Below are positions 2,011-23,032 of a DNA stretch of 23,032 nt, in pieces. The translations under genes and the position numbers were made by a program. How positions within the stretch are numbered: the stretch's first letter is position 1; each line of letters begins with the position of its first letter. This DNA comes from Chiloscyllium plagiosum (lineage: Eukaryota), in the NCBI RefSeq assembly GCF_004010195.1, contig NC_057751.1:8422404-8445435 (forward strand), written 5' to 3'. Below the pieces are notes generated by a model. That model saw nothing but the letters and a program-made list of their open reading frames with translations. It had not been told where the DNA came from and made no database searches.

Positions 2011-3906
2011 TGTAAAGTCAGTTATTTTAGGGTTTTGGATTTTGAACTAGTGGCATGTGAGTTCATGTCTCTGTGTATGAGAGGGTTTAATAATTAATTT
2101 AGTTGCCTTTCTAGAACTATGATTTTAAACCAGCGCATGTCAGAAAGCAGCTGAAGGCCCTCCTGGAGTGAAAATGTGACTGTTTGTATTGTGAGAATTT
2201 TAGTTTAGAGACAGTAATCATTAAAAGGCATTTGTTTGTTCTTAGTGATTGTGTGGCACTAAATAGGATTTAATTTTACCAAGTCTTGCTCACCCTTCAA
2301 CTTGTGTTATCTGTAAAGTGTTTGGTTTGATCGATTTTATCTTCACTCCTGTAATTTAACAAATTTCAGGTTTATTGTTAAAACCAAATATGCAGTATTG
2401 TGTCCTGAAATCTTAAATTAGGAACAAAATACAAAGCATCATCGATCACTCTTTAAGAAGGGTAGTAAGGACAAGCCAGGGAACTATAGACCAGTGAGCC
2501 TGACGTCGGTGGTAGGCATGTTGTTGGAGGGAATCCTGAGGGATAGGATGTACATGTATTTGGAAAGGCAAGGACTGATTAGGTACAGTCAACATGGCTT
2601 TGTGCGTGGGAAATAATGTCTCAGAAACTTGATTGAGTTTTTTGAAGAAGTAACAAAGAGGATTGATGAGGGCAGAGTAGTAGATGTGATCTATATGGAC
2701 TTCAGTAAGGCATTGGGAGACTGATTAGCAAGGTTAGATCTCACAGAATAAAGGGAGAACTAGCCATTTGGATACAGAACTGGCTCAAAGGTAGAGGACA
2801 GAGGGTAGTGGTGGAGGGTTGTTTTTCAGACTAGAGGCCTATGACCAGTGGAGTGCCACAAGTGGTAGGTCCTCTACTTTTTGTCATTTACATAAATGAT
2901 TTGGATGTGAGCATAACAGGTACAGTTAGTAAGTTTGCAGATGACACCAAAATTGGAGGTGTAGTGGACAGCGAAGAGGGTTACCTCAGATTACAACAAG
3001 ATCTTGATCAGAAAGGTCAGTGGAGCGAGGAGTGGCAGGTGGAGTTTAATTCAGATAAATGAGAGGTGCTGTATTTTGGGAAAGCAACTCTTAGCAGGAC
3101 TTATACACTTAATGGTAAGGTCCTAGAGAATGTTGCTGAACAAAGAGACCTTAGAGTGCAAGTTCATAGCTCCTTGAAAGTGGAGTCGCAGGCAGATCAG
3201 ATAGTGAAGAAGGCATTTGGTATGCTTTCTTTGATTGGTCAGAGTATTAAGTACAGGAGTTGGGAGGTCATGTTGCGGCTGTACAGGACATTGGTTAGGC
3301 CACTGTTGGAATATTATGTGCAATTCTGGTCTCCTTCCTATCAGAAAGATGTCATGAAATCTGAAAGGGTTCATAAAAGATTGACAAGGATGTTGCTAGG
3401 GTTGGAGGATTTCAGCGATGGGGAGAGGCTGAACAGGCTGGGACTGTTTTCCCTGGAGCGTCGGAGGCTGAGGGGTGACCTTAAAGAGGTTTACAAAATT
3501 ATGAGGGGCATGGATAGGATAAATAGGCAAAGTCTTTTCCCTGGGGTGGGAGAGTCCAGAACTAGAGGGCATAGGTTTAGGGTGATAGGAGAAAGATATA
3601 AAAGGGACCTAAGGGGCAACTTTTTCACGCAGAGGGTGCTACGTGTATGGAATGAGCTGCCGGAGGAAGTGATGGAGGCTAGTACAATTGCAACATTTAA
3701 GAGGCATTTGGATGGGTATATGAATAGGAAGGGTTTGGAGAGATATGGGCCGGGTGCTGGCAGGTGGGACTAGATTGGGTTGGGATAGCTGGTCGGCATG
3801 GACGGGTTGGACTGAAGGGTCTGTTTCCACGCTGTACATCTCTATGACTCTAAGATTTTAGTCTTGGGTCTGATTTGTCTTGTCGCAATGCTAGCTGAGA
3901 TCATAA
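2011..3906 (+). mobile_element. Possible solo LTR (2011-2446 and 3853-3906) interrupted by the CR1 insertion
   Basis: Starts tgtaaag and ends ...gtctgatttgtc...agctgagatcataa, resembling recalled shark LTR ends (...gggatcataaca). No TSD or intact terminal CA is seen. Confidence 0.35.
2447..3852 (+). mobile_element. 5'-truncated HER1-type CR1 LINE (RT domain, C-terminus, 3'UTR), inactivated
   Basis: Translates to FKKGSKDKPGNYRPVSLTSV, VDVIYMDFSKA, GVPQ..GPLLFVIYINDL, SKFADDTK, LYRTLVRPLLEY.VQFWSP and NFFTQRV.RVWNELP. Contains stops and small deletions and ends in the ctctatgactct tail. Explains ORFs 2841..3062 and 3066..3773. Confidence 0.97.
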
Positions 3907-5414
3907 AGCGGTCTAGTAACACAAGGTAGTAAGTTTCATGTATAATCAGTTGATGATGTTTTAATTGCTTGAGATGAACTGTTCTGCTTTGAAAACTAAA
4001 GCCATAAGATTAGACAAGGTACCAGGGATGTCCAATGTCCCTGAAGTTCAGCCTCATCAAGTGTCAAAGCCCTAAAGGAAAGTGGAGAGGAAAATTGATT
4101 GGAACAAGAAACAGCCTCACACATGACAGGAGAAAATTAATCTTCAAGAACCCAGGAGACATTTATAGGAAACAAAAGAAATGCAAAACAAATGGGAAAC
4201 GTTATAAACTCAAACACATTGCAACTGACAAGTTCTGCAAACAAAGATTTGGTTGCAATCATTAAAATTCTCAACTTGCAGACAACACCACACTTGGGGA
4301 AGAATGTACTGCTCAACAACAGCAGAGGAAATACAGTGACTTCAGCTGGTGCAGAAATAGCTAATTTAACGATATTCTGCTGAACTGACAAAAATAAACA
4401 AGTACAATTCCCAGTGATGTCACAACAGTCACACTAAATGCACACAGCACAAAGGAGCAGGAACATCAGCCGATTAACTTATGTGAGATTTACGCCTGCT
4501 CAAATCAGCATTACCTTCTGGATATTTTCAAACAAAGGCAATGTGTTGTGCATATCACAAAAAAAGTGTTCTATCGTTTTTAGAAACGAAACAACTCTTG
4601 CCAACAGGACACTCTTTCTTAAGGTGACCAATCACCCACCATCATACCTGTTCTGGTCTATTCTGCACCACTGTGGTCAGCCTTTCTCTCATCTTCATCC
4701 CTCCATCACCAACTTTTAATTATTTAACTCGGCCTGTCTACCACACACAGTTCCTCATTTACGTCACAAAATTTTACCAACTCCAGACCTCTAGGAAAAT
4801 TATTACCTCACTCAGCCTTCCACATCCCTTAAAATCTTTACATCGTATTTATGGCACAGAAACATGCCAATATTTGACAGCCTCTTCTGGCCTATTTCAC
4901 ATAACTCCAACAAAGTGTTCTTTCCCATGACCATCAACATAGAAAATGCCAAATGGAAATTCACCTCAGGTACTTTGCACATTCATGAAAAGCTACAAGT
5001 TATTAAACAATAACAGAGAAACTGTTACTGTGTCACAGAAATCTAACCTTAATTAAATTATGTATGAAGACTATTTCTTTGCAACTAATATCATTAGTCA
5101 CTAAGTGCATGTCTTTGTTCATTCATCAGCTCCTGTTAAGAGTTCTGATGGATAAGAGCAGAAATTAAGCCAGGAGCCAAACTGTCCTGCATCTTAGGGA
5201 TTGAAGCCTTTTCTGTGAACACACTCAACATCAATATTGAAACAGCTATGATCCTTATTGTTCCCAAAACTCTTTGCCTTTATGAAAATTCTTCAACAGC
5301 AGATTTAATCAAGAAAGAGTAACCCATCAAATCCGCTCTGTTTGCCTCAGAGTTGAGTCCCACATTGGACCCATTCACTTGGCACAGGCATTTTCAAACT
5401 TCCCTGTTGGATAT

Positions 5415-6780: not shown

Positions 6781-7283
6781 TGAGATGGTCCATGTGTGAC
6801 ACATGTGTGATTCAAATGTTTCTTGTCACTTTGCAGCCCAAACCTGGATATTGTCCAGGTCTTGTCACATTGGACACTGACTGATGCAGTATTTGAGGAA
6901 TTGTGAATGGGACTGTACATTTCAATTAGAAGCAAACATCCCCACTTCTGACCTTATCATGAAGATCATTGATGAAGTAGCTGAAGTTGGTTGGTCCGAG
7001 GACACCACTTTCATGAATCCCTGCAGTGATGTCCTGGAGCTGAGATGACTAACCTCCAATAACCAGAAGAATCTTCTGACGTGTCAGATAATTCCAACCA
7101 GCAGAAAGATTTATCACACTGTCTTCAGTTTGTCAAGAGCTCCTTGATGCCACATTCGTTCGAATGTGACCCTGACATCAAGGGCTGTCACTCTCACCTC
7201 ACCTCTGGAATTCAGCTCTTTTGTCAATGCTTGAACCAAGGCTGTAATGAGGTCGGGAGCTAAGGGACATTGGCAGGACCCAA
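6781..7283 (-). mobile_element. RT-domain fragment of the second LINE family
   Basis: Colinear with ~18482-18989 (agccca..cctggatattgtccag, cacttctgacctt, gatgtcctggagctgagatgact, gtcactctcacct..c.tctggaatt.agctcttttgt). Confidence 0.88.
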
Positions 7284-7364
7284 GGTAAGGGAAGGGAGGT
7301 GTGTAGGAGGTGGGGTGTGTGCAGGATGGGGGTTGGAGGTGAGTGTGCTTGGCAGACTGTGGGA

Positions 7365-8305
7365 AGAAAGTGAGGTCTGCAGATGCTGGAGATCAAAGTT
7401 GAAACTTTATTGCTGGAACAGCACAGCAGGTCAGGCAGCATCCAGGGAACAGGAGATTCGACGTTTCGGGCACAGGCCCTTCTTCAGGAATGAGCAGAGA
7501 GTGTTCAGCAGGAGAAGATAAAAGGTAGGGAGGAGGGACTTGGAGGAGGGGAGTTGGAAATGTGATAGGTGGAAAGAATATCCTCGGTGGAGTGGGAGGG
7601 GGAGTTGAGATGCTGTGCTACAGGTTGGTTGGGTTGGTTCGTCCGGGTGGCCCAGAGGTGCTCTCTGAATCGCTCCGCTAGTAGGCGGCCTGTCTCCCCA
7701 ATATAGAGGAGGCCACACCGGCTGCAGCGGATGCAGTAGATGATGTGGGTGGAGGTGCAGGTGAATCTGTGGCGGATATGGAATTTTCCTTTGGGGCCTT
7801 GGAGAGAAGTGAGGGGGGAGGTGTGGGCGCAAGTGTTGCACCTCCTGCGGTTGCAAGGGAAGGTGCCGGGAGTGGTGGTTGGGTCGGTGGGGGGTGTGGA
7901 TCTGACAAGGGAGTCGCGGAGGGAGTGGTCTCTATGGAAAGCTGATAGGGGAGGGGAGGGAAATATATTCTTGGTGCTGGGGTCTGTTTGGAGGTGGCGG
8001 AAGTGACGGCGGATGATGTGCTGTACATGGAGATTGGTGGGGTGGTAGGTGAGGACCAGTGGGGTTCTGTCCTGGTGGCGGTTGGAGGGGCGGGGCTCAA
8101 GGGCGGGGGGGCGGGAAGTGGAGGAGATGCGGTGGAGGGCACCGTCGACCACGTCGGGGGGGAAATTGCGGTCCTTGAAGAAGGAGGCCATCTGTGTTGT
8201 ACGTATTTTGAACTGGTCCTCCTGGGAGCAGATGCGGCGGAGACGAAGGAATTGGGAGAATGGGATGGCGTTTTTACAGGGGGCAGGATGGGAGGAGGTG
8301 TAGTC
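7365..8305 (-). mobile_element. 5'-truncated Penelope-like retroelement (probably Neptune clade) with 12-bp TSD
   Basis: GIY-YIG ORF plus 3' terminal region with a hammerhead and AATAAA (7406-7411). Flanked by an exact direct repeat cagactgtggga at 7353-7364 and 8306-8317. Confidence 0.95.
7456..7491 (-). ncRNA. Minimal type I hammerhead ribozyme of the PLE
   Basis: Minus strand reads ATTC-CTGAAGA-A-GGGC-CTGT-GCCC-GAAA-C-GTC-GAAT: stem I ATTC/GAAT, CUGANGA core, stem II GGGC/GCCC, GAAA, palindromic ACGT stem III and GUC cleavage triplet. Confidence 0.85.
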
Positions 8306-8308
8306 CAG
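7505..8308 (-). pseudogene. PLE polyprotein fragment: RT thumb, Cys-rich linker and GIY-YIG endonuclease; C-terminus deleted
   Basis: Open frame LDYTSSHPAPCKNAIPFSQFLRLRRICS...PLVLTYHP...GTFPCNRRRCNTC...IIYCIRCSRCGLLYIGETGRLLAERFREH. The last ~23 residues are read-through into the 3'UTR. Confidence 0.93.
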
Positions 8309-8850
8309 ACTGTGGGATCCAGTCGACAGAGAGATGTTGGAGGGTGGAGAATGCTCCGGTCAGTGGTCAACAAGCATCAACCATGTCTTGTAGCTCTGTT
8401 GCTGAAGCAAATAATGTAAAAGGCCTGGGATATAAAATGTGTTCACTGCAGAGGCAGTCTCCTTGTAGCTGTTATCAGCAGGTAGCCCTAGGTTCCGTAA
8501 AGTTAGGAAGTGGTACAATGGGCATGTTATGGTAATTACGTTAATTACAATGATGCATTTTATGTCAATACTCCACCTACGTTACACTGAGGATTAGGAG
8601 GTGGATACAAAGTCTAAATTGAAAATTGCACACTCTGCTCATAACATCCCAACTGTGATGCCTATTTCTAAGTACAAAAATTCTTGCGATTTAAATATCA
8701 CTCCCAGAAGAAAAATAATTACTTTTAGAACTGGATTTTCAATGAAAACAAATCATAAGGACAAAATGAAACTTCACATTGCTTTCTGTCTGCATCCCAC
8801 CCGTACCAAGTGCAGGCAACGCTCATTTTAAACAATTTCCCCTCGATGTA

Positions 8851-8999
8851 AAAGCATTCAGTCTTTCATTTGCACCTTTGACCAAGAAATATACCACATG
8901 AGCCAATCTCCATGAGCAGCGCACTGCTCACCAGCAGCCTGCAGCACAACTTGTGATGTTGTGTCACCAAAGTGCATTCAACATGATCTCTCTCTTAAA
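8851..8999 (+). repeat. Copy 1 of a 149-bp direct repeat
   Basis: aaagcattcagtc...gatctctctcttaaa; differs from 9288-9436 by about 3 substitutions and two 2-nt indels. Confidence 0.95.
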
Positions 9000-9287: not shown

Positions 9288-9436
9288 AAAGCATTCAGTC
9301 TTTCATTTGCACCTTTGACCAAGAAATATACCACGAGCCAATCTCCATGAGCAGCGCACTGCTCTCCAGTAGCCTGCAGCACAACTTGTGATGTTGTGTC
9401 ACCAAAGTGCATTGAAAACATGATCTCTCTCTTAAA
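9288..9436 (+). repeat. Copy 2 of the 149-bp direct repeat
   Basis: Near-identical to 8851-8999. Confidence 0.95.
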
Positions 9437-10429: not shown

Positions 10430-10740
10430 TCAACAACTGTATATGTCCTTCAAGGAAGCACAATTGCCCAAGGGTGCTTCACGATGAGATACCAACCAAA
10501 GGGGAATATTTGAAAGGGCGACTGTGATGTGGTTGAAGATGTGGCTTTTCAAGAGGTTCCAAAAAAAAGGAGAAGGAAATTTAGAGCTGAGGACTTGGGG
10601 GAGTGGATTGTCAAGCCTGGGTGGTTATTGATAGAGATGTGAAGAATAAGACAAGGGAATGAGACGTACAACAAACTGAAGCAAAAAGACGAGGAAGAAC
10701 AAACTAAATCCAGGAGTAAAACAATATGAAGAAGATTGAG
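10430..10740 (-). mobile_element. Old L2-type LINE 3' end, probably resuming at ~11104-11143 after the CR1 insertion
   Basis: caacaactgtatat...cccaagggtgcttcac...ggcttttcaagagg..., a purine-rich tract resembling the reverse complement of the L2 3' end; very diverged. Confidence 0.5.
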
Positions 10741-10741
10741 A

Positions 10742-11103
10742 ACCTTATAGAGGTTTATAAATCCATTAGGGGTATAGATAAGGTGAATGCAGGTGTCTTT
10801 TCCCTAGGGTGGGGTATTTCAAGACTAGGAGGCATATTTTTAAGGTGAGAGGAGAAAGATTTAACAAAATCATGAGGGGCAAAGGTTTTTCTACAGAGAG
10901 TAGTTGTTGTGTGGAATGAGCTTCCAAAGGAAGTGGTGGATGCGTGTACAGTTACAATGTTTAAAAGACATCTGGATAAGTATGAATTGGAAATGTTTGG
11001 AGGGATATGGGTCAAACGCAGGCAGGTGAGGCTAGCTTAGTTTGGGATTATGGTCAGCATGGATTGGTTGGACTGAATGGTTCGTTTCTGTGCTGTATGG
11101 CTA
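10742..11103 (+). mobile_element. 5'-truncated CR1 (HER1-related subfamily)
   Basis: accttatagaggtttataa (LIEVYK), gtggaatgagcttcca (WNELP), tttaaaagacatctggataag and a 3'UTR ending ggactgaatgg..gtttctgtgctgtatg. Confidence 0.92.
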
Positions 11104-11159
11104 CAGCTTAATAGGATGAAAGATTACAAAATAGAGGGATGCAAAAGTTTTTTTAAAAA

Positions 11160-11698
11160 TATTTGAAGGTACATAAGGTAAGACGATAAGTCCACTTGTT
11201 GGGAAGTCAAAGACTCATGTCCATAGAAATAAGATTGTCATTTCACACATGAACCACTCTCTATAGAAAAAACATTGCCCTTCATGACTTTGTTAAAGCT
11301 TTCTCCTCTCAACTTTCAAATATGCCTCCTCATCTTGAAATCCTCCATTCTAAGGAAATGATACCTGCCATTCACTTTATCTATACCCCTAATGGTTTTA
11401 TATACCTCTATTAGGTTCTCAACCTTCTTCATATTGTCTTACTTCCAACAAAGAACTGAAAAGACTCTTCTTCACCCAAATATTGAACAGAATGTAAAAT
11501 CTGCTACCAAGTTGCAAGTTCAAGTGACTGACAACAATGTATTTAACTGGATGCTAGCTCAGTAATTGAGGGAGAAAGGAAAAAGGCATGTTTAGGGGAT
11601 GAAACAAAGTAGGTTGGAGAAGGCTGAAATGGGGCAAATGTGAGCACAGATCAGCTGGGCAGATCGGCCTGATTCAATGTCGTAAATTCTGTGTGATT
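11160..11698 (+). mobile_element. Ancient CR1 3' end split by an inverted insertion (11160-11240 and 11445-11698)
   Basis: tccacttgttgggaagtcaaagact...cata..aataagattgtca continues after the insert as ccaacaaagaactgaaaagactcttcttcaccca...gagggagaaagga...ggcctgattcaatgtcgtaaattct. Confidence 0.65.
11238..11446 (-). repeat. Inverted duplicate of 10713-10919 (flank plus CR1 5' junction)
   Basis: Reverse complement agtaagacaatatgaagaaggttgagaacctaatagagg matches agtaaaacaatatgaagaagattgagaaccttatagagg and stays colinear for about 205 bp. Confidence 0.88.
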
Positions 11699-12985: not shown

Positions 12986-13365
12986 CAGGCTCACCTCAAG
13001 TCCCAGTTTCAAGTCCAACTGTAGCAAATAATGATGTGACATGACACATTTGAACAGGTCCAACTGAAATTTATGAAGGAACTCAGAACAGGCCCAGACA
13101 ATGGGCCATGGTTTAGACTTTACACCTGACTGCCTACCCACCTTCCGTGGTTATGTCCACATGCAAGTGTCCTTGGAGAGGGACTCTGCTCAAAATCACA
13201 TCTCAACTTGAATTGCTTATTTGGTTTTCAATGTAATCTGTTTAGGTCCATTGTTTTCATTGGTTCAACTAAGCAGTAGAATGATGATCAGCCTGCCCCA
13301 AGGTGTCTATTAACAGGTCAAGCAGCATGTCACAGAGAGGATATTTCCACATGACTTTTTTTCAG

Positions 13366-13699
13366 GATCCCTACAATATGGAAGCAGGCCCTTTGGCCCA
13401 ACAAGTCCACACCAATCCTCCGAAGAGTGACACGCGCAGACCCATTCTCCTACGTTTACCCCAGACTAATGCACCCACCCTACACATCCCTGACCACTGT
13501 GGGACAATTTAACACGGCCAACTCACCTGACCTGCACATCTTTGAATTGTGGGAGGAAACCAGAGCACCCAGAAGAAACCCATGCAGACATGGGGATAAT
13601 GTGCAAACTCCACGCAGGTAGGCACCCAAGGCTGAGAATCAAACCTGGGTCCCTGGCACTGTGAGGCAGCAATGCTAACCACTGAGCCACCGTGCTGCC
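13366..13699 (-). mobile_element. HE1-type V-SINE, full length
   Basis: Head ggcagcacggtggctcagtggttagca (A box), ggtttgattctc (B-box-like), V-domain gtggagtttgcacatt...ggtttcctcccaca and HER1-like tail gggccaaagggcctgcttcc. Confidence 0.93.
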
Positions 13700-13842
13700 T
13701 CTTTTTCCACTGTTTCATCTTGTAGAGGGAACACCCAGAGTCCACAGGCATGGTTGAGGTGATCAAAGGGTCCGCAGGAGCTGGAGCCCATCACCAGTCC
13801 AAGAACTGACACTGCAATTTAAATTACTGAATTTAATTCAAA

Positions 13843-14152
13843 GCTGCACAGTGCCTCAATGGTTAGCACTGCTGCCTCACAGCACCAGGGACCCAGGTTG
13901 GATTCCACCTTCAGGCGACTGTCTGTGTGGAGTTTGTACATTCTCCCCGTGTCTGCGTGGGTTTCCTCCCACAGTCCAAATATGTGCAGGTTAGGTGAAT
14001 TGGCCATACTAAATTGCCTATAATGCACAGGGATATGCAAGCGAGGTGAGTGAGACATGAGAAGTGCAGGTTATAGGGGTAGGTCTGGGTTGGATGCTTT
14101 TTGGAGGGTCAGTAGGGGCAAATGACCTGCTTCCACACAATAGCAATTCGAT
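13843..14152 (+). mobile_element. HE1-type V-SINE
   Basis: tggttagcactgctgcctcacagcaccagggacccaggtt, then gtggagtttgtacattctccccgtgtctgcgtgggtttcctcccacagtccaaa, with tail gacctgcttccacac. Confidence 0.93.
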
Positions 14153-15458: not shown

Positions 15459-16447
15459 GAGTCATAGAGTCACATGGAAACAGACCCTTCGGTCCAACTC
15501 ATCCATGCCGACCAGATATCCCAACCCAATTTCGTCCCATTTGCCAGCATATCCCTCTAAACACTTCCTATTCATATACCCATCCAGATGCCTTTTAAAT
15601 GCTGTAATTGAACCAGCTTCCAGCACTTCCTCTGGTAGCTCATTCCATACACGTACCACCCTCTGTGTGAAAGAATAGCTCCTTAAGTCCCTTGTAAATC
15701 TTTCACCTCTCACCCTAAACCTATGCCCTCTAGTTCTGGACTCCCCCACCCCAGGGAAAAGACTTTGCCTATTTATCCTATCGATGTCCCCCATGATTAT
15801 ATAAACTTCTATAAGGTCACCCCTCAGCCTCCGACGCTCCAGGGAAAACAGCCCCAGCCTGTTCAGCCTCTCCCGAAAGTTCAAACCCTCCAACACTGGC
15901 AACATCCTTGTAAATCTTTTCTGAACCCTTTCAAGTTTCACAACATCCTTCCGAAAGGAAGGAGACCAGAATTGCACACAATATTCCAAAAGTGGCCGAA
16001 CTAGTGTCCTGTACAGCCGCAACATGATCTTCCAACTCCCATAGTCAATGCTCTGACCATAACGTCTTCCTCACTATCCTATCTACCTGCGACTCTACTT
16101 TCAAGGAACGATGAACCTGCACTCCAGGTCTCATTGTTTAGCAACACTCAAAAGGACCTTACCATTAAATGTATCAGTCTTGCTCTGATTTGCTTTTCCA
16201 AAATGCAGCACCTTACATTTATCTAAATTAAACTCCATCTGCCACTTCTCGGCCTATTGAGCCATCTGATCAAGGTCCCATTGGAATCGGAAGTAATCTT
16301 CTTCGCTGTCCATTACACCTCCAATTTGGGTGTCTTCTGCAAACTTACTAACTGTACCTCCTACGTTCACAACCAAATGATTTCTATAAATGACATAAAG
16401 CAGTGCACCCAGCACCGATCCTTGTGGTACACCACTGGTCACAGGGC
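15459..16447 (-). mobile_element. 5'-truncated HER1-type CR1 LINE, inactivated
   Basis: PVTSGVPQGSVLG.LL.VIY, SKFAEDT, LYRTLVRPLLEYCVQFWSP and RVVRVWNELP, then a 3'UTR with ctctatgactc tail. Has a deletion near 16060. Confidence 0.97.
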
Positions 16448-16764: not shown

Positions 16765-16977
16765 AGCAAGCATTGTTACCATTCCAGTTCATATTTTATC
16801 ACACAAGTAGGATCCCAGATTGAAGTGTGGTTTGATAGGTCGTGTTCCGTTTTGGTTTTTTTTTTCGTTTTAATGAGACAGTCATTTATTGAAACACAAA
16901 CATTCAATGTGCCAGATTTGCTTCTAACAAGAAACCTGAAGTATTTTATGCAAAAAAGATAAAATAGAACGAACAAA

Positions 16978-17612
16978 ACACCAAAATTAGAGGTGTAGTG
17001 GACAGCGAAGAGGGTTACCTCAGATTACAACAGGATCTGGACCAGATGGGCCAATGGGCTGAGAAGTGGCAGATGGAGTTTAATTTAGATAAATGCGAGG
17101 TGCTGCATTTTGGGAAAGCAAATCTTAGCAGGACTTATACACTTAATGGTAAGGTCCTAGGGAGTGTTGCTGAATAAAGAGACCTTGGAGTGCAGGTTCA
17201 TAGCTCCTTGAATGTGGAGTCGCAGGTGGATAGGATAGTGAAGAAGGCGTTTGGTATGCTTTCTTTGATTGGTCAGAGTATTGAGTACAGTTCCCTGGGG
17301 TGGGGGAGTCCAGAACTAGAGGGCATAGGTTTAGAGTGAGAGGGGAAAGATATAAAAGAGACCTAAGGGGCAACTTTTTCATGCAGAGGATGGTACGTGT
17401 ATGGAATGAGCTGCCAGAGGATGTGGTGGAGGCTGGTACAATTGCAACATGTAAGAGGCATTTGGATGGGTATATGACAAGGAAGGGTTTGGAGGGATAT
17501 GGGGCGGGTGCTGGCAGGTGGGACTAGATTGGGTCAGGATATCTGGTCGGCATGGACGGGTTGGACCGAAGGGTCTGTTTCCATGCTGTACATCTCTATG
17601 ACTCTATGACTC
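16978..17612 (+). mobile_element. 5'-truncated HER1-type CR1 with a ~280-nt internal deletion
   Basis: Very similar to 2945-3256 and then 3537-3852; junction gtacag|ttccctgggg at 17290/17291; tail ctctatgactctatgactc. Confidence 0.97.
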
Positions 17613-17806: not shown

Positions 17807-19099
17807 TTTTTTCTCATTCATTCATAGGACATGGGCATTGCTGGCTGGGCCAGCATTAATCGACTGTCCTGAGTCACCCTTGAGAAGGTGGTGGCGAACT
17901 GCCTTCTCAAATTGCTGCAGTTCACATGCTGTAGGTTAACCCACAATGCCCTCACAGAGGGAATTCCAGAATTTTGACCCAGTGACAGTGAAGAAATGGC
18001 AATGTATTTCCAAGTCAGGATGGTGACAGGGACCTGCAAGCACAGGTGCTCCCATACATCTGCTGACCCTGTCCTTTTAGATGGAGGTTGCCATGGGTTT
18101 GGAAGGTGCTGCCTGAGGATCATTGATAAATTTCCACAGTGCATGTGGCAGATAATGCACACTGCTGCTGACAGGTTTCAGTGGTAGAGAATAGTATCAA
18201 GTTTTCTGATGTCTAGCTGCACTTATACCCAGGCAAGTGGGAAATATTCCATCATGCTCATGGCTCATGCTTTGTTGATGGTGGACAGATGTTGGGGAGT
18301 CAGGAGATTCACTGCAATATTCCGAGCATCTGACCTGCATTGTCAACACTGTATTTATGTGGCGAGTCCAGGTCAGCTTCTGGTCAATGGAGGCCCCTCC
18401 CCCCCAAGATGTTCATAGTGCAGAATTCAGTGATGGTAACATCATTAAATGACAAGGGGCAGTGATTAGATTGTCTCTTCTTGGATATGGTCATTGCCTG
18501 ACATTTGTGTGGCACAAATATTAATTATCACTTGTTAGCCCAAGCCTGGATATTGTCCAGATCTTGTTGTATTTGAACATGGACTGCTTCGGGAGCTGAG
18601 AAGTCGCAAATGGTGCTGAACATTGTGCAATCATCGGTGAACATCCTCACTTCTGACCTTGTGATGGAGGGAAGGTCATTGATGAAACAACTGAAGATGG
18701 TTGGGCTTTGGACATGACCCTGAGGAATTCCTGCAGAGATGTCCTGGAGCTGAGATGACTGATCTCTAACAATCATAATCACCTTCCTATGTTCCAACCA
18801 GTTGAGACTTTTCCCCTGACACCCAGTCATTCCAGTTTTGCTAGGGTTCCTTGATACCACATGGTTGAAGGCAGCCTTGATGTCAAAAGTTGTCACTCTC
18901 ACCTTGCTTCTGGAATTAAGCTCTTTTGTTCATGTTTGAATAAAGGTTATGATTTGTTCAGGAGCTGAGTGATCCTGGTGGAACCCAAACTGGACATCAC
19001 TGAGCAGGTTGTTGTTAAGTAGATACTGCTTGATAGCACTATAGATATCATCTTCCATCAGTTTACTGATGATTGAGAGGAGACTGATGAGGCAGTAAT
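17807..19099 (-). mobile_element. 5'-truncated second LINE family (CR1/L2 group): RT domain to 3' (ATGA)n tail
   Basis: NY.LISLLSIISKLME, DIKAAF, GIPQG....PTIFSCFINDLP, MFTDDCTMF and QQDLDNIQAWA.K; ends ...gcccatgtcctatgaatgaatga. Confidence 0.92.
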
Positions 19100-19691: not shown

Positions 19692-20034
19692 AGAATCCCT
19701 ATAGTGTGGATAGCAGGCAATTTGACCCATCGAGTCCACACCGCCCCTCTGAAGAGCATCACACCCTGACCCAACCCTACTCTATCCAATCCCTGTAAGC
19801 CTGCATTCCACACAGCTAATCCACCTCGCCTGCACAGCCCTGGACACTATGGCCAATTTAGTATGGCCAATCTGCCTAACCTGCACATCATTGGACTGCA
19901 GAAGTTAACCAGGGCACCCAGAGGAAACCCATTCAGACACAGTGAAAATGTGCATACTCCACACAAACAGATGCTCCAGAGTAGAATTGATGCTGTGAGG
20001 TGGCAGTGCTCACCACTGAGCCGCTGTGCTGCCC
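19692..20034 (-). mobile_element. HE1-type V-SINE, diverged
   Basis: Colinear with 13366-13699 (ccactgagccgctgtgctgcc head, ctccacaca, cctgcacatc, agtccacacc). Confidence 0.88.
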
Positions 20035-21495: not shown

Positions 21496-22165
21496 TACAT
21501 GAGATTGCAGCACCTGACCCTTCCCTGCTCCAAACTCACAAATACACTGATCAAACACTCAGAGTCTTACAGGCTGTACCGTAGGACTGGAAATAAGCTG
21601 AGGCTTGTTATTTTCTTCTACATATGATTATATAGGAAGGTACTACTTGCAATAGCAGATCAGTGTTTCTGTAAACCTTCAATATTCACAGTCATTACAG
21701 GGTTTTCCATATTGCAACAGATGCCAGCCAATGGTTGAATAAGCTCTTTGCATTTATTGCCTGATATTCCTGCTTTCAAAAATTGCTTCCCTGTTAAATT
21801 AGAGTTTTGAAATAAGCATCTGATAACAGGCAAATCCAATTATTTTCAGGAGATGGTGCATGTAACAGATATATATTGGATCATTCCAACTAAGAAAACA
21901 CTGCAATTGGAATTTTTTAAATGTTTTTTATCTTTAATTGTAATTAAATACTGATCAGGGGAAATTGCTGCAATCGAATAGAGACTTGATATTAAACTCA
22001 GAGCATTTATAGTCAGCTTTAATTGTGTTTAACTCTATCATGGGTGAAATAGTTAAGCTTCATGCAAGCACAGTGTGGTGTGAAGCAATTTGCATCACCA
22101 TTAGAGCTCTGTGCAAACATTCTATTAATCTATTTCTTCATGCCTTCTACTGTATATTGGTATTT

Positions 22166-22268
22166 CACAATTTTGAGGAAGGGTCAATCAACCAGAAACG
22201 TTAACTCTGATTTCTCTCTGCAGATGCTGCTGGACCTGCTGCAATTTCTGTTTTTGTTGTTGATATTT
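22166..22268 (+). mobile_element. Solo terminal fragment of a second PLE family with a decayed hammerhead
   Basis: ttttgaggaagggtcaatcaaccagaaacgttaactc followed by gatgctgc..gacctgctg, the same downstream motif as gatgctgcctgacctgctg in the 7365-8305 element. Confidence 0.7.
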
Positions 22269-22752: not shown

Positions 22753-23032
22753 AAGCTGAAAATGTGTTGCTGGAAAAGCGCAGCAGGTCAGGCCGCATCC
22801 AAGGAGCAGGAGAATACACATTTCGGGCATGAGCCCTTCTTCTGGAATGAGGAAAGTGTGTCCAGCAGGCTAAAATAAAAGGTAGGGAGGAGGGACTTGG
22901 GGAAGGGGCACTGGAAATGCGATAGGTGGAAGGAGGTTAAGGTGAGGGTGATAGGCCGGAGTGGGGGTGGGGGCGGAGAGGTCAGGAAGAAGATTGCAGG
23001 TTAGGAAGGTGGTGCTGAGTTCAAGGGTTGGG
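22753..23032 (-). mobile_element. 3' terminus of a Penelope-like element related to 7365-8305, continuing beyond the window
   Basis: ttgctggaa.agc.cagcaggtcagg...tttcgggca...gcccttcttc.ggaatgag...ataaaaggtagggaggagggacttgg aligns to ~7395-7577. Confidence 0.93.

Follow-up and report, generated by a model that had tools for sequence, protein, structure and literature searches.

The 23,032-nucleotide stretch of Chiloscyllium plagiosum DNA analysed here (the window) carries at 7456..7491 of its minus strand a minimal type I hammerhead ribozyme motif (min-HHR), which direct reading, a chance test and covariation in relatives establish as a real member of the already described min-HHR class of Penelope-like elements (PLEs). 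It forms part of the 3' terminus of a 5'-truncated and internally deleted PLE insertion. In our view it is very probably a lone passenger in a young, dead copy of the element, with little or no cutting and no function for the host.

Results

The hammerhead motif

Read along the minus strand, the motif comprises the stem I 5' arm AUUC (7491-7488), the core CUGAAGA (7487-7481), an extra A (7480), the stem II arms GGGC (7479-7476) and GCCC (7471-7468) around the loop CUGU (7475-7472), GAAA (7467-7464), C15.2-G16.2 (7463-7462), U16.1 (7461), C17 (7460), 3' of which the cut is predicted, and the stem I 3' arm GAAU (7459-7456). Stems I and II have 4 bp each and loop II has 4 nt; stem II is closed by G 7479 / C 7468 (G10.1-C11.1), stem III is the palindrome ACGU without a loop, the cleavage triplet is GUC, and the whole motif contains three CpGs. 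An earlier sequence-only reading of this DNA had placed all type I hammerhead parts on the minus strand and had described stem III as a loopless ACGU palindrome, and direct reading bears out both statements, every coordinate included. The motif departs from a canonical type I hammerhead, which has a stable stem III or a tertiary contact between stem I and loop II, a match to an Rfam model, and a 6-bp stem I with an internal loop. It has instead the features of a min-HHR, namely the CUGANGA...GAAA...UH core, the extra nucleotide together with G10.1-C11.1, the palindromic 15.2-16.2 without loop 3, a position in a PLE terminal repeat in sense orientation to the ORF, and stems that covary across element families.

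Let us consider, however, whether a motif this small could be a chance match. The sequence-only reading had suggested a check with Rfam hammerhead models, and this check failed to lend support: at E<=5 the scan returned three matches, all under the gathering score and none of them a hammerhead. The folding energy is unremarkable (z -0.81, with 45 of 200 shuffles folding equally well). A relaxed hammerhead descriptor, for which 7456..7491 is the sole match on both strands of the window, also matches 85 of 500 dinucleotide-shuffled windows. Against chance, none of 2000 dinucleotide shuffles contained a match to a strict descriptor, which took its shape from the motif and was written after it had been seen. 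What refutes chance is that related elements share the position of the motif, its strand and its covarying stems, as described below, and we give a chance match next to no probability. Since Rfam gives no match and the fold has a z-score of only -0.81, the case for the hammerhead rests on motif and context and not on energy. A search of viral contigs with the hammerhead pattern gave no matches.

The surrounding element

The insertion that carries the motif occupies 941 bp (7365..8305, minus strand) and is bounded by a perfect 12-bp target-site duplication, with its left copy at 7353..7364 and its right copy at 8306..8317 (both plus strand), a 12-mer found in the window only at 7353 and 8306. 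Family reads and contigs stop at 7365, and single-copy depth is reached past ~8325. Most of the insertion is a stop-free remnant of the PLE frame (7579..8305, minus strand; identified by Pfam, relatives and alignment), which runs from the end of the RT thumb through a CX4CxxC linker finger, CNRRRCNTC (P0001), of the general form CX2-5CxxC, into a GIY-YIG domain with CCHH, and breaks off before the endonuclease C-terminus. The Pfam GIY-YIG match of this frame has E 1.3e-4 and 22.6 bits, a score equal to the cut-off. The order of domains is that of GIY-YIG with CCHH downstream of an RT, the relatives having RVT_1 upstream. Among longer proteins, 33 relatives were found, of which the top ones are shark and ray proteins with 59-75% identity, labelled Chiloscyllium, Rhincodon, Stegostoma and Hypanus by source, followed by marine invertebrate RT-endonuclease (RT-EN) proteins; the 75% identity is to a shark RT-EN protein. 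The same protein query against viral contigs gave four pattern matches, none of which was confirmed. One ray protein, P0005, labelled 'divergent protein kinase domain 1C isoform X2', is almost wholly PLE RT-endonuclease, and its label apparently reflects a misannotation or an exonised element.

At 7577..7579 (minus strand) lies an internal deletion junction, placed by alignment and by family contigs that diverge behind 7574/7577. Near 7578 the frame jumps from mid-endonuclease into the 3' terminus, with the loss of the endonuclease C-terminus including the conserved Glu and Asn, the stop codon and part of the 3' UTR. The size of the loss, ~390 nt, is approximate, since it was taken from the frame of the Stegostoma protein P0004 (486 versus 92 nt), which belongs to a different family; the P0004 frame runs through the equivalent of the motif as LMKGLRPKRQ. 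The 3' terminus (7365..7577, minus strand), a pLTR remnant with the hammerhead in it, is recognised by an 83% match of 7396-7577 to 22753-22934. It contains AATAAA at 7411-7406 (minus strand, direct reading), and it finishes in an optional tail of ~30-45 nt that ends at 7365 (minus strand), is lacking in the 22753-22934 copy and is marked by loose ends at 7365 and 7410/7411. The earlier placement of the hammerhead in a PLE terminus is therefore correct: it is in the 3' terminus and sense to the GIY-YIG frame.

The copy has no RT core and no 5' terminal repeat, and, given the 5' truncation at 8305 and the internal deletion, it is not the complete RT-EN ORF with a terminal repeat on either side that an active, autonomous PLE has. 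With RT core and 5' repeat missing and the frame jumping near 7578, the copy is dead. Its motifs, and relatives that share the hammerhead of Acropora Neptune, suggest that it came from a Neptune-like PLE.

Several other repeats lie in the window. Fragments from the 3' end of one LINE family, which we take to be CR1-like, are found in both orientations and at most 93% alike at 1-214, 2862-3853, 10715-11443, 15473-16415 and 16975-17607, with 10715-10983 and 11238-11443 forming an inverted pair. Older LINE reverse-transcriptase remnants at 6782-7283 and 18484-18988 are 74-87% alike (RVT_1 E 6.4e-10 for 18484-18988), and the PLE was inserted ~70-80 bp past the end of the one at 6782-7283. SINE-like repeats, presumably HE1-like, occupy 13502-14070 and 19793-20033, including two in inverted orientation at a distance of 144-398 bp, and a local direct duplication of ~145 bp (8851-8995 / 9288-9430, spacing 435-437) is 90-100% alike.

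Conservation in related elements

Metagenome contigs contained 373 confirmed relatives, 80 of which were taken for analysis. The endonuclease end was placed in 61 of these 80 loci, and the 53 with at least 300 nt after it were scorable. The motif is present on the sense strand of 25 of the 53, at 80-153 nt past the endonuclease end, and on the antisense strand of none; the descriptor was blank in the remaining 28, in many of which the covariance model finds decayed matches. The set is redundant, with ~17 distinct strings. Our covariation alignment consists of the window motif and 16 relatives (n = 17), chosen by a descriptor that itself requires pairing, so that the figure of 96% paired is circular, while the position and strand of the motif are not. 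The core is nearly invariant in this alignment, G10.1-C11.1 and 15.2-16.2 are kept in 17 of 17 sequences, and two-sided changes occur in seven of the eight stem I/II pairs. The covariation score of 0.659 is to be compared with 0.18 in shuffles, none of 500 of which reaches it, and with 0.05-0.12 for slid partners. When the aligned motifs were made into a covariance model, it matched the 80 loci 59 times at E<=0.01, a count that includes the training sequences. Conservation of core and stems, on which the sequence-only reading had staked its proposal, thus holds for related element lineages, both in covariation and in sense-strand position.

In L033, L039, L061, L075, L079 and L080 the motif matches the published Acropora digitifera Neptune motif. 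L005 has two same-strand hammerheads (1018-1070 and 4084-4136) on either side of the ORF at a spacing of 3,066 nt; full-length elements are arranged in this way, and the window copy is not. Motifs on opposite strands are found in five loci (L016, L055, L073, L075 and L079).

Insertion age, allelic state and copy number

Four features suggest that the insertion is young: the perfect 12-bp duplication, a stop-free frame of ~240 codons, a CpG observed/expected ratio of 0.60 compared with 0.24-0.25 in the flanking window, and flank contigs that do not continue into the element. Youth would be sufficient reason for the motif to be intact. Eight of the 30 listed element differences are near-fixed with respect to the family contigs of DNA run X1, which puts the divergence of the copy from the X1 family at a few percent at least. 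If we assume a range of 3-5% divergence, all 30 constrained positions of the motif are expected to be intact in 21-40% of copies. All of the 30 listed differences lie outside the motif, which could hint at constraint, but the probability of this by chance is ~0.31. In family pieces clipped behind 7472, stems and core are the same, and the letters of loop II and N7 differ (free positions; consensus agreement 0.43).

The DNA runs also bear on the presence of the insertion in other genomes. In X12 (organism B), one and the same contig depth (44.8) applies to 7312 and to 8306-8800, and the record begins 174 letters before 8306; both observations fit an empty site. The flank contigs of X1 extend on the left (7364) by 430 letters and on the right (8316) by 161 letters that are unlike the element or the window, and that sample may have another allele at this target site. 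No piece bridging flank and element occurs among the pieces listed for X1 and X12. From these data, we infer a probably polymorphic or lineage-specific insertion.

The family itself is clearly very high-copy: contig depth summed at the motif exceeds that of the unique flank by a factor of ~7x10^5 in X1 and 3x10^5 in X12, although such sums give no copy number. Some details concern where copies begin. Exactly behind 7491, where stem I has its first letter, the match ends for 161 RNA reads from other copies of the family, and in X1 as well as X12 the summed DNA depth upstream of the motif is lower by a factor of four to five. Many short copies may therefore start at the 5' edge of the hammerhead (7491) and not at the cut site, 7459; this edge could mark the element RNA's 5' end or an RT stall, or else subfamily divergence. 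X1 also has a joint of 7490 to 7458 with three letters between (depth 101), perhaps from a head-to-tail hammerhead duplication, which would be a natural double hammerhead elsewhere in the genome, perhaps from a fold-back with a second arm that begins beside the cut site.

The depth of the motif region, about fivefold that of the upstream sequence, would also speak for a motif that belongs to a non-autonomous retrozyme, whose tandem hammerhead repeats give circular RNAs, and not to a PLE copy. PLE terminal repeats are the source of animal retrozymes, which a preprint (bioRxiv 10.64898/2026.07.22.740005) reports from one chondrichthyan. For this copy the retrozyme explanation is nevertheless refuted: there are no tandem motif units here, where a retrozyme has at least two, each with a complete hammerhead, and a single target duplication encloses both the motif and the GIY-YIG remnant to which it is attached. 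We regard it as highly improbable.

Partner motifs and predicted folding

A second hammerhead of the same family lies at 22813..22848 on the same (minus) strand, 15.4 kb from the first, with a covariance model score of 22.9 bits (E 1.8e-4). It is decayed, having lost U4, C15.2, C17 and two stem I pairs, i.e. half of stem I. Compared with the first copy, 8 of its 36 motif letters differ, as do 23 of 146 outside the motif, proportions which, in this one comparison, suggest that the motif is unprotected after insertion. A weak match on the plus strand (22163..22215, model R1, 13.6 bits, E 0.13) is probably a third, older relic from another PLE family. Terminus relics at 22163-22260 (plus) and ~13300-13370 (minus) resemble such an older family with a hammerhead-like core. 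A fourth relic seen by eye near 13365 (minus) was absent from the ten model matches at E<=5 and is not counted, and we take as chance the seven other places in the window that the model matches (E 0.26-4.5). With the 5' terminal repeat missing and the same-strand copy mutated in its core, the 7456..7491 hammerhead has no working partner in cis.

Predicted folding gives little encouragement to pairing between motifs. By nearest-neighbour energies, for which the tertiary core is outside the model, the double hammerhead is at -13.1 kcal/mol and two monomers are at -14.2. The pairing probability of stem I is at most 0.04 in contexts of at least 216 nt. A distal extension of stem I (7506-7502 / 7451-7447) has a probability of 0.68-0.85 in a 76-nt fragment; we considered this 5-bp pairing as a tertiary-contact stem and rejected it, its probability being at most 0.012 in longer contexts, where it lends stem I no support.

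RNA reads and the host gene question

The RNA data come from X21, one poly(A) single-cell sample of which ~2 in 100 of the run were read. On 7150-8800 it has 3,110 reads at a likeness of at least 85% and 194 at 99% or more. Of these reads, 92% continue into unrelated sequence, family reads fall in the motif bin on both strands (714 and 540), and the depth on the unique flank 8326-8800 is 0. The reads represent family copies within other transcripts and are not evidence for this locus. Read ends do not pile up at 7460/7459 (bin depth >1,200) or elsewhere on 7150-8800, a weak test of cleavage, since libraries of this kind under-capture short 5'-OH products.

The sequence-only reading had gone further and proposed that candidate exons on the minus strand would place the hammerhead in sense orientation in a host pre-mRNA, a situation in which a host gene could have co-opted it as an intronic regulatory ribozyme that cuts the pre-mRNA. 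The motif is indeed fully intact, including its three CpGs, and the window could be one large intron, so that exons outside it, or micro-exons, would escape our tests. On the other hand, the candidate exons were not found in the window: among non-repeat frames of at least 36 aa, none of the 91 on the minus strand and none of the 99 on the plus strand reaches the Pfam cut-off (five matches at E<=0.01 among the 190 frames are far below it and are taken as chance), and a splice-site heuristic gave 13 candidate rows, mostly in repeats and none convincing. With no exon, no RNA on the unique flank and flank contigs that bypass the element, the sense position in a pre-mRNA is unsupported. The insertion appears to be absent at the site in two other DNA samples, and an intact motif is no surprise at the divergence assumed above. 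Host co-option, in our judgement, deserves hardly any weight.

A further possibility is that the motif is cut in vivo without a partner in cis, either by pairing in trans with one of the very many family copies in other transcripts or with the RT-EN protein of active elements as a chaperone. The great abundance of the family, its RNA reads on both strands and a published case of protein-assisted cleavage of a PLE hammerhead (PMC11167929) would favour this. The relative energies of double hammerhead and monomers, with the reservation about the tertiary core, the low stem I probability in longer contexts, the absence of X21 read ends at the site and of X21 reads on the flank, and the weak cleavage of published dimers (PMC4209133) speak against it, and we consider it unlikely. 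The same protein-assisted case bears on the earlier statement that this copy is competent only as a double hammerhead: the double hammerhead is one of two modes described in the literature, and the word 'only' is too strong.

Discussion

Our preferred reading remains that of a passenger motif. The motif would be the 3' terminal repeat hammerhead of a Neptune-like PLE with a linker finger and an endonuclease, and target-primed reverse transcription would have produced from it a 5'-truncated, internally deleted insertion that was dead on arrival. Core and stems would be kept by selection in the active master elements. In multi-unit transcripts of these, as suggested by the literature, two motifs may exchange the partners of stem I and, through their ACGU palindromes, form a stem III in common, and/or the RT-EN protein may fold the RNA into its active form, leading to the cut after GUC. 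At 7365..8305 the motif would be intact by virtue of youth, would have no partner in cis and would most likely undergo little or no cutting, without any function for the host.

One may also contemplate a broader scenario, in which lone intact motifs are switched on in trans by family RNA or RT-EN protein, so that expression of the family, in the germline for instance, would lead to the cutting of host transcripts. It builds on motif copies that may number on the order of 10^5 in the genome, an estimate from summed depth, which is not a copy number, and on the family RNA of both strands that occurs within other transcripts. We think this very unlikely. If true, dispersed PLE hammerheads would be a genome-wide RNA cleavage system triggered by a retrotransposon, and this would be the first in vivo evidence for PLE hammerhead activity. 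The single locus at 7365..8305 does not advance the question of cutting in vivo, or that of why active lineages keep their hammerheads; the very high-copy shark family to which it belongs, however, would be a convenient substrate for addressing this by end-capturing RNA-seq. With this locus, a cartilaginous fish joins the motif class, which was described in 2014 and ranges from cnidarians to reptiles; the copy itself is debris. Our literature search, which covered few subscription papers, found no shark PLE hammerhead, though the supplements of the 2026 preprint may list one.

Comparison with known systems

Animal non-LTR retrozymes (bioRxiv 10.64898/2026.07.22.740005) likewise carry a type I hammerhead related to that of PLE terminal repeats, but they are non-coding tandem units, whereas the window copy has a single motif on a coding remnant. 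The hammerheads of Lunse, Weinberg and Breaker, as cited in PMC6765202, are PLE-associated and have a short stem III with which they cleave as dimers; by the account of the citing text, their palindromic, extremely short stem III resembles that of our motif, which differs in having no second cis motif in its copy.

The Anolis carolinensis PLE hammerhead (PAc; PMC11167929) cleaves only with the protein of the element; its cleavage is dispensable for insertion in vitro, and RNA-seq ends at the cut site are absent. The window copy resembles this Poseidon element in being a vertebrate PLE with a hammerhead in its terminal repeat and in having no RNA-seq reads that end at the cut site. An optional tail is also common to both, of 30-40 bp in PAc, from two RT start sites, with ends at 7365 and near 7400-7411 in the window. 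PAc belongs to the Poseidon clade, has no linker finger and is full-length; in contrast, the window copy has a CX4CxxC linker and is truncated and deleted.

A linker finger together with CCHH marks the Neptune/Nematis type of PLE according to PMC8557442, which calls the function of PLE hammerheads unclear. Like elements of this type, the window copy has an RT followed by a CX2-5CxxC finger and GIY-YIG with CCHH, a target duplication and a tail, and its relatives occur in inverted and tandem arrangements. Unlike them, it is without RT core, 5' repeat and endonuclease C-terminus.

The closest match is to the min-HHRs of Cervera and De la Pena 2014 (PMC4209133), which have the extra nucleotide, G10.1-C11.1 and the palindromic 15.2-16.2, and number in the thousands in a genome, for the most part singly and in truncated PLEs; their monomers did not cleave, whereas dimers and trimers did so weakly. 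No cartilaginous fish is among the 56 rows given there. The loopless C-G form is found in 28 of the 56 motifs of their Fig. S3 (hand count). The window motif shares with this set the type I arrangement, CUGANGA with the extra nucleotide, G10.1-C11.1, the short stem I, the loopless palindrome and the 3' position in a 5'-truncated element, and it has the same stem II arm, GGGC, as the Acropora digitifera Neptune row. It differs from those rows in stem I and loop II letters particular to the window family, with no difference in structure, and the 7456..7491 hammerhead is an ordinary member of this known class.
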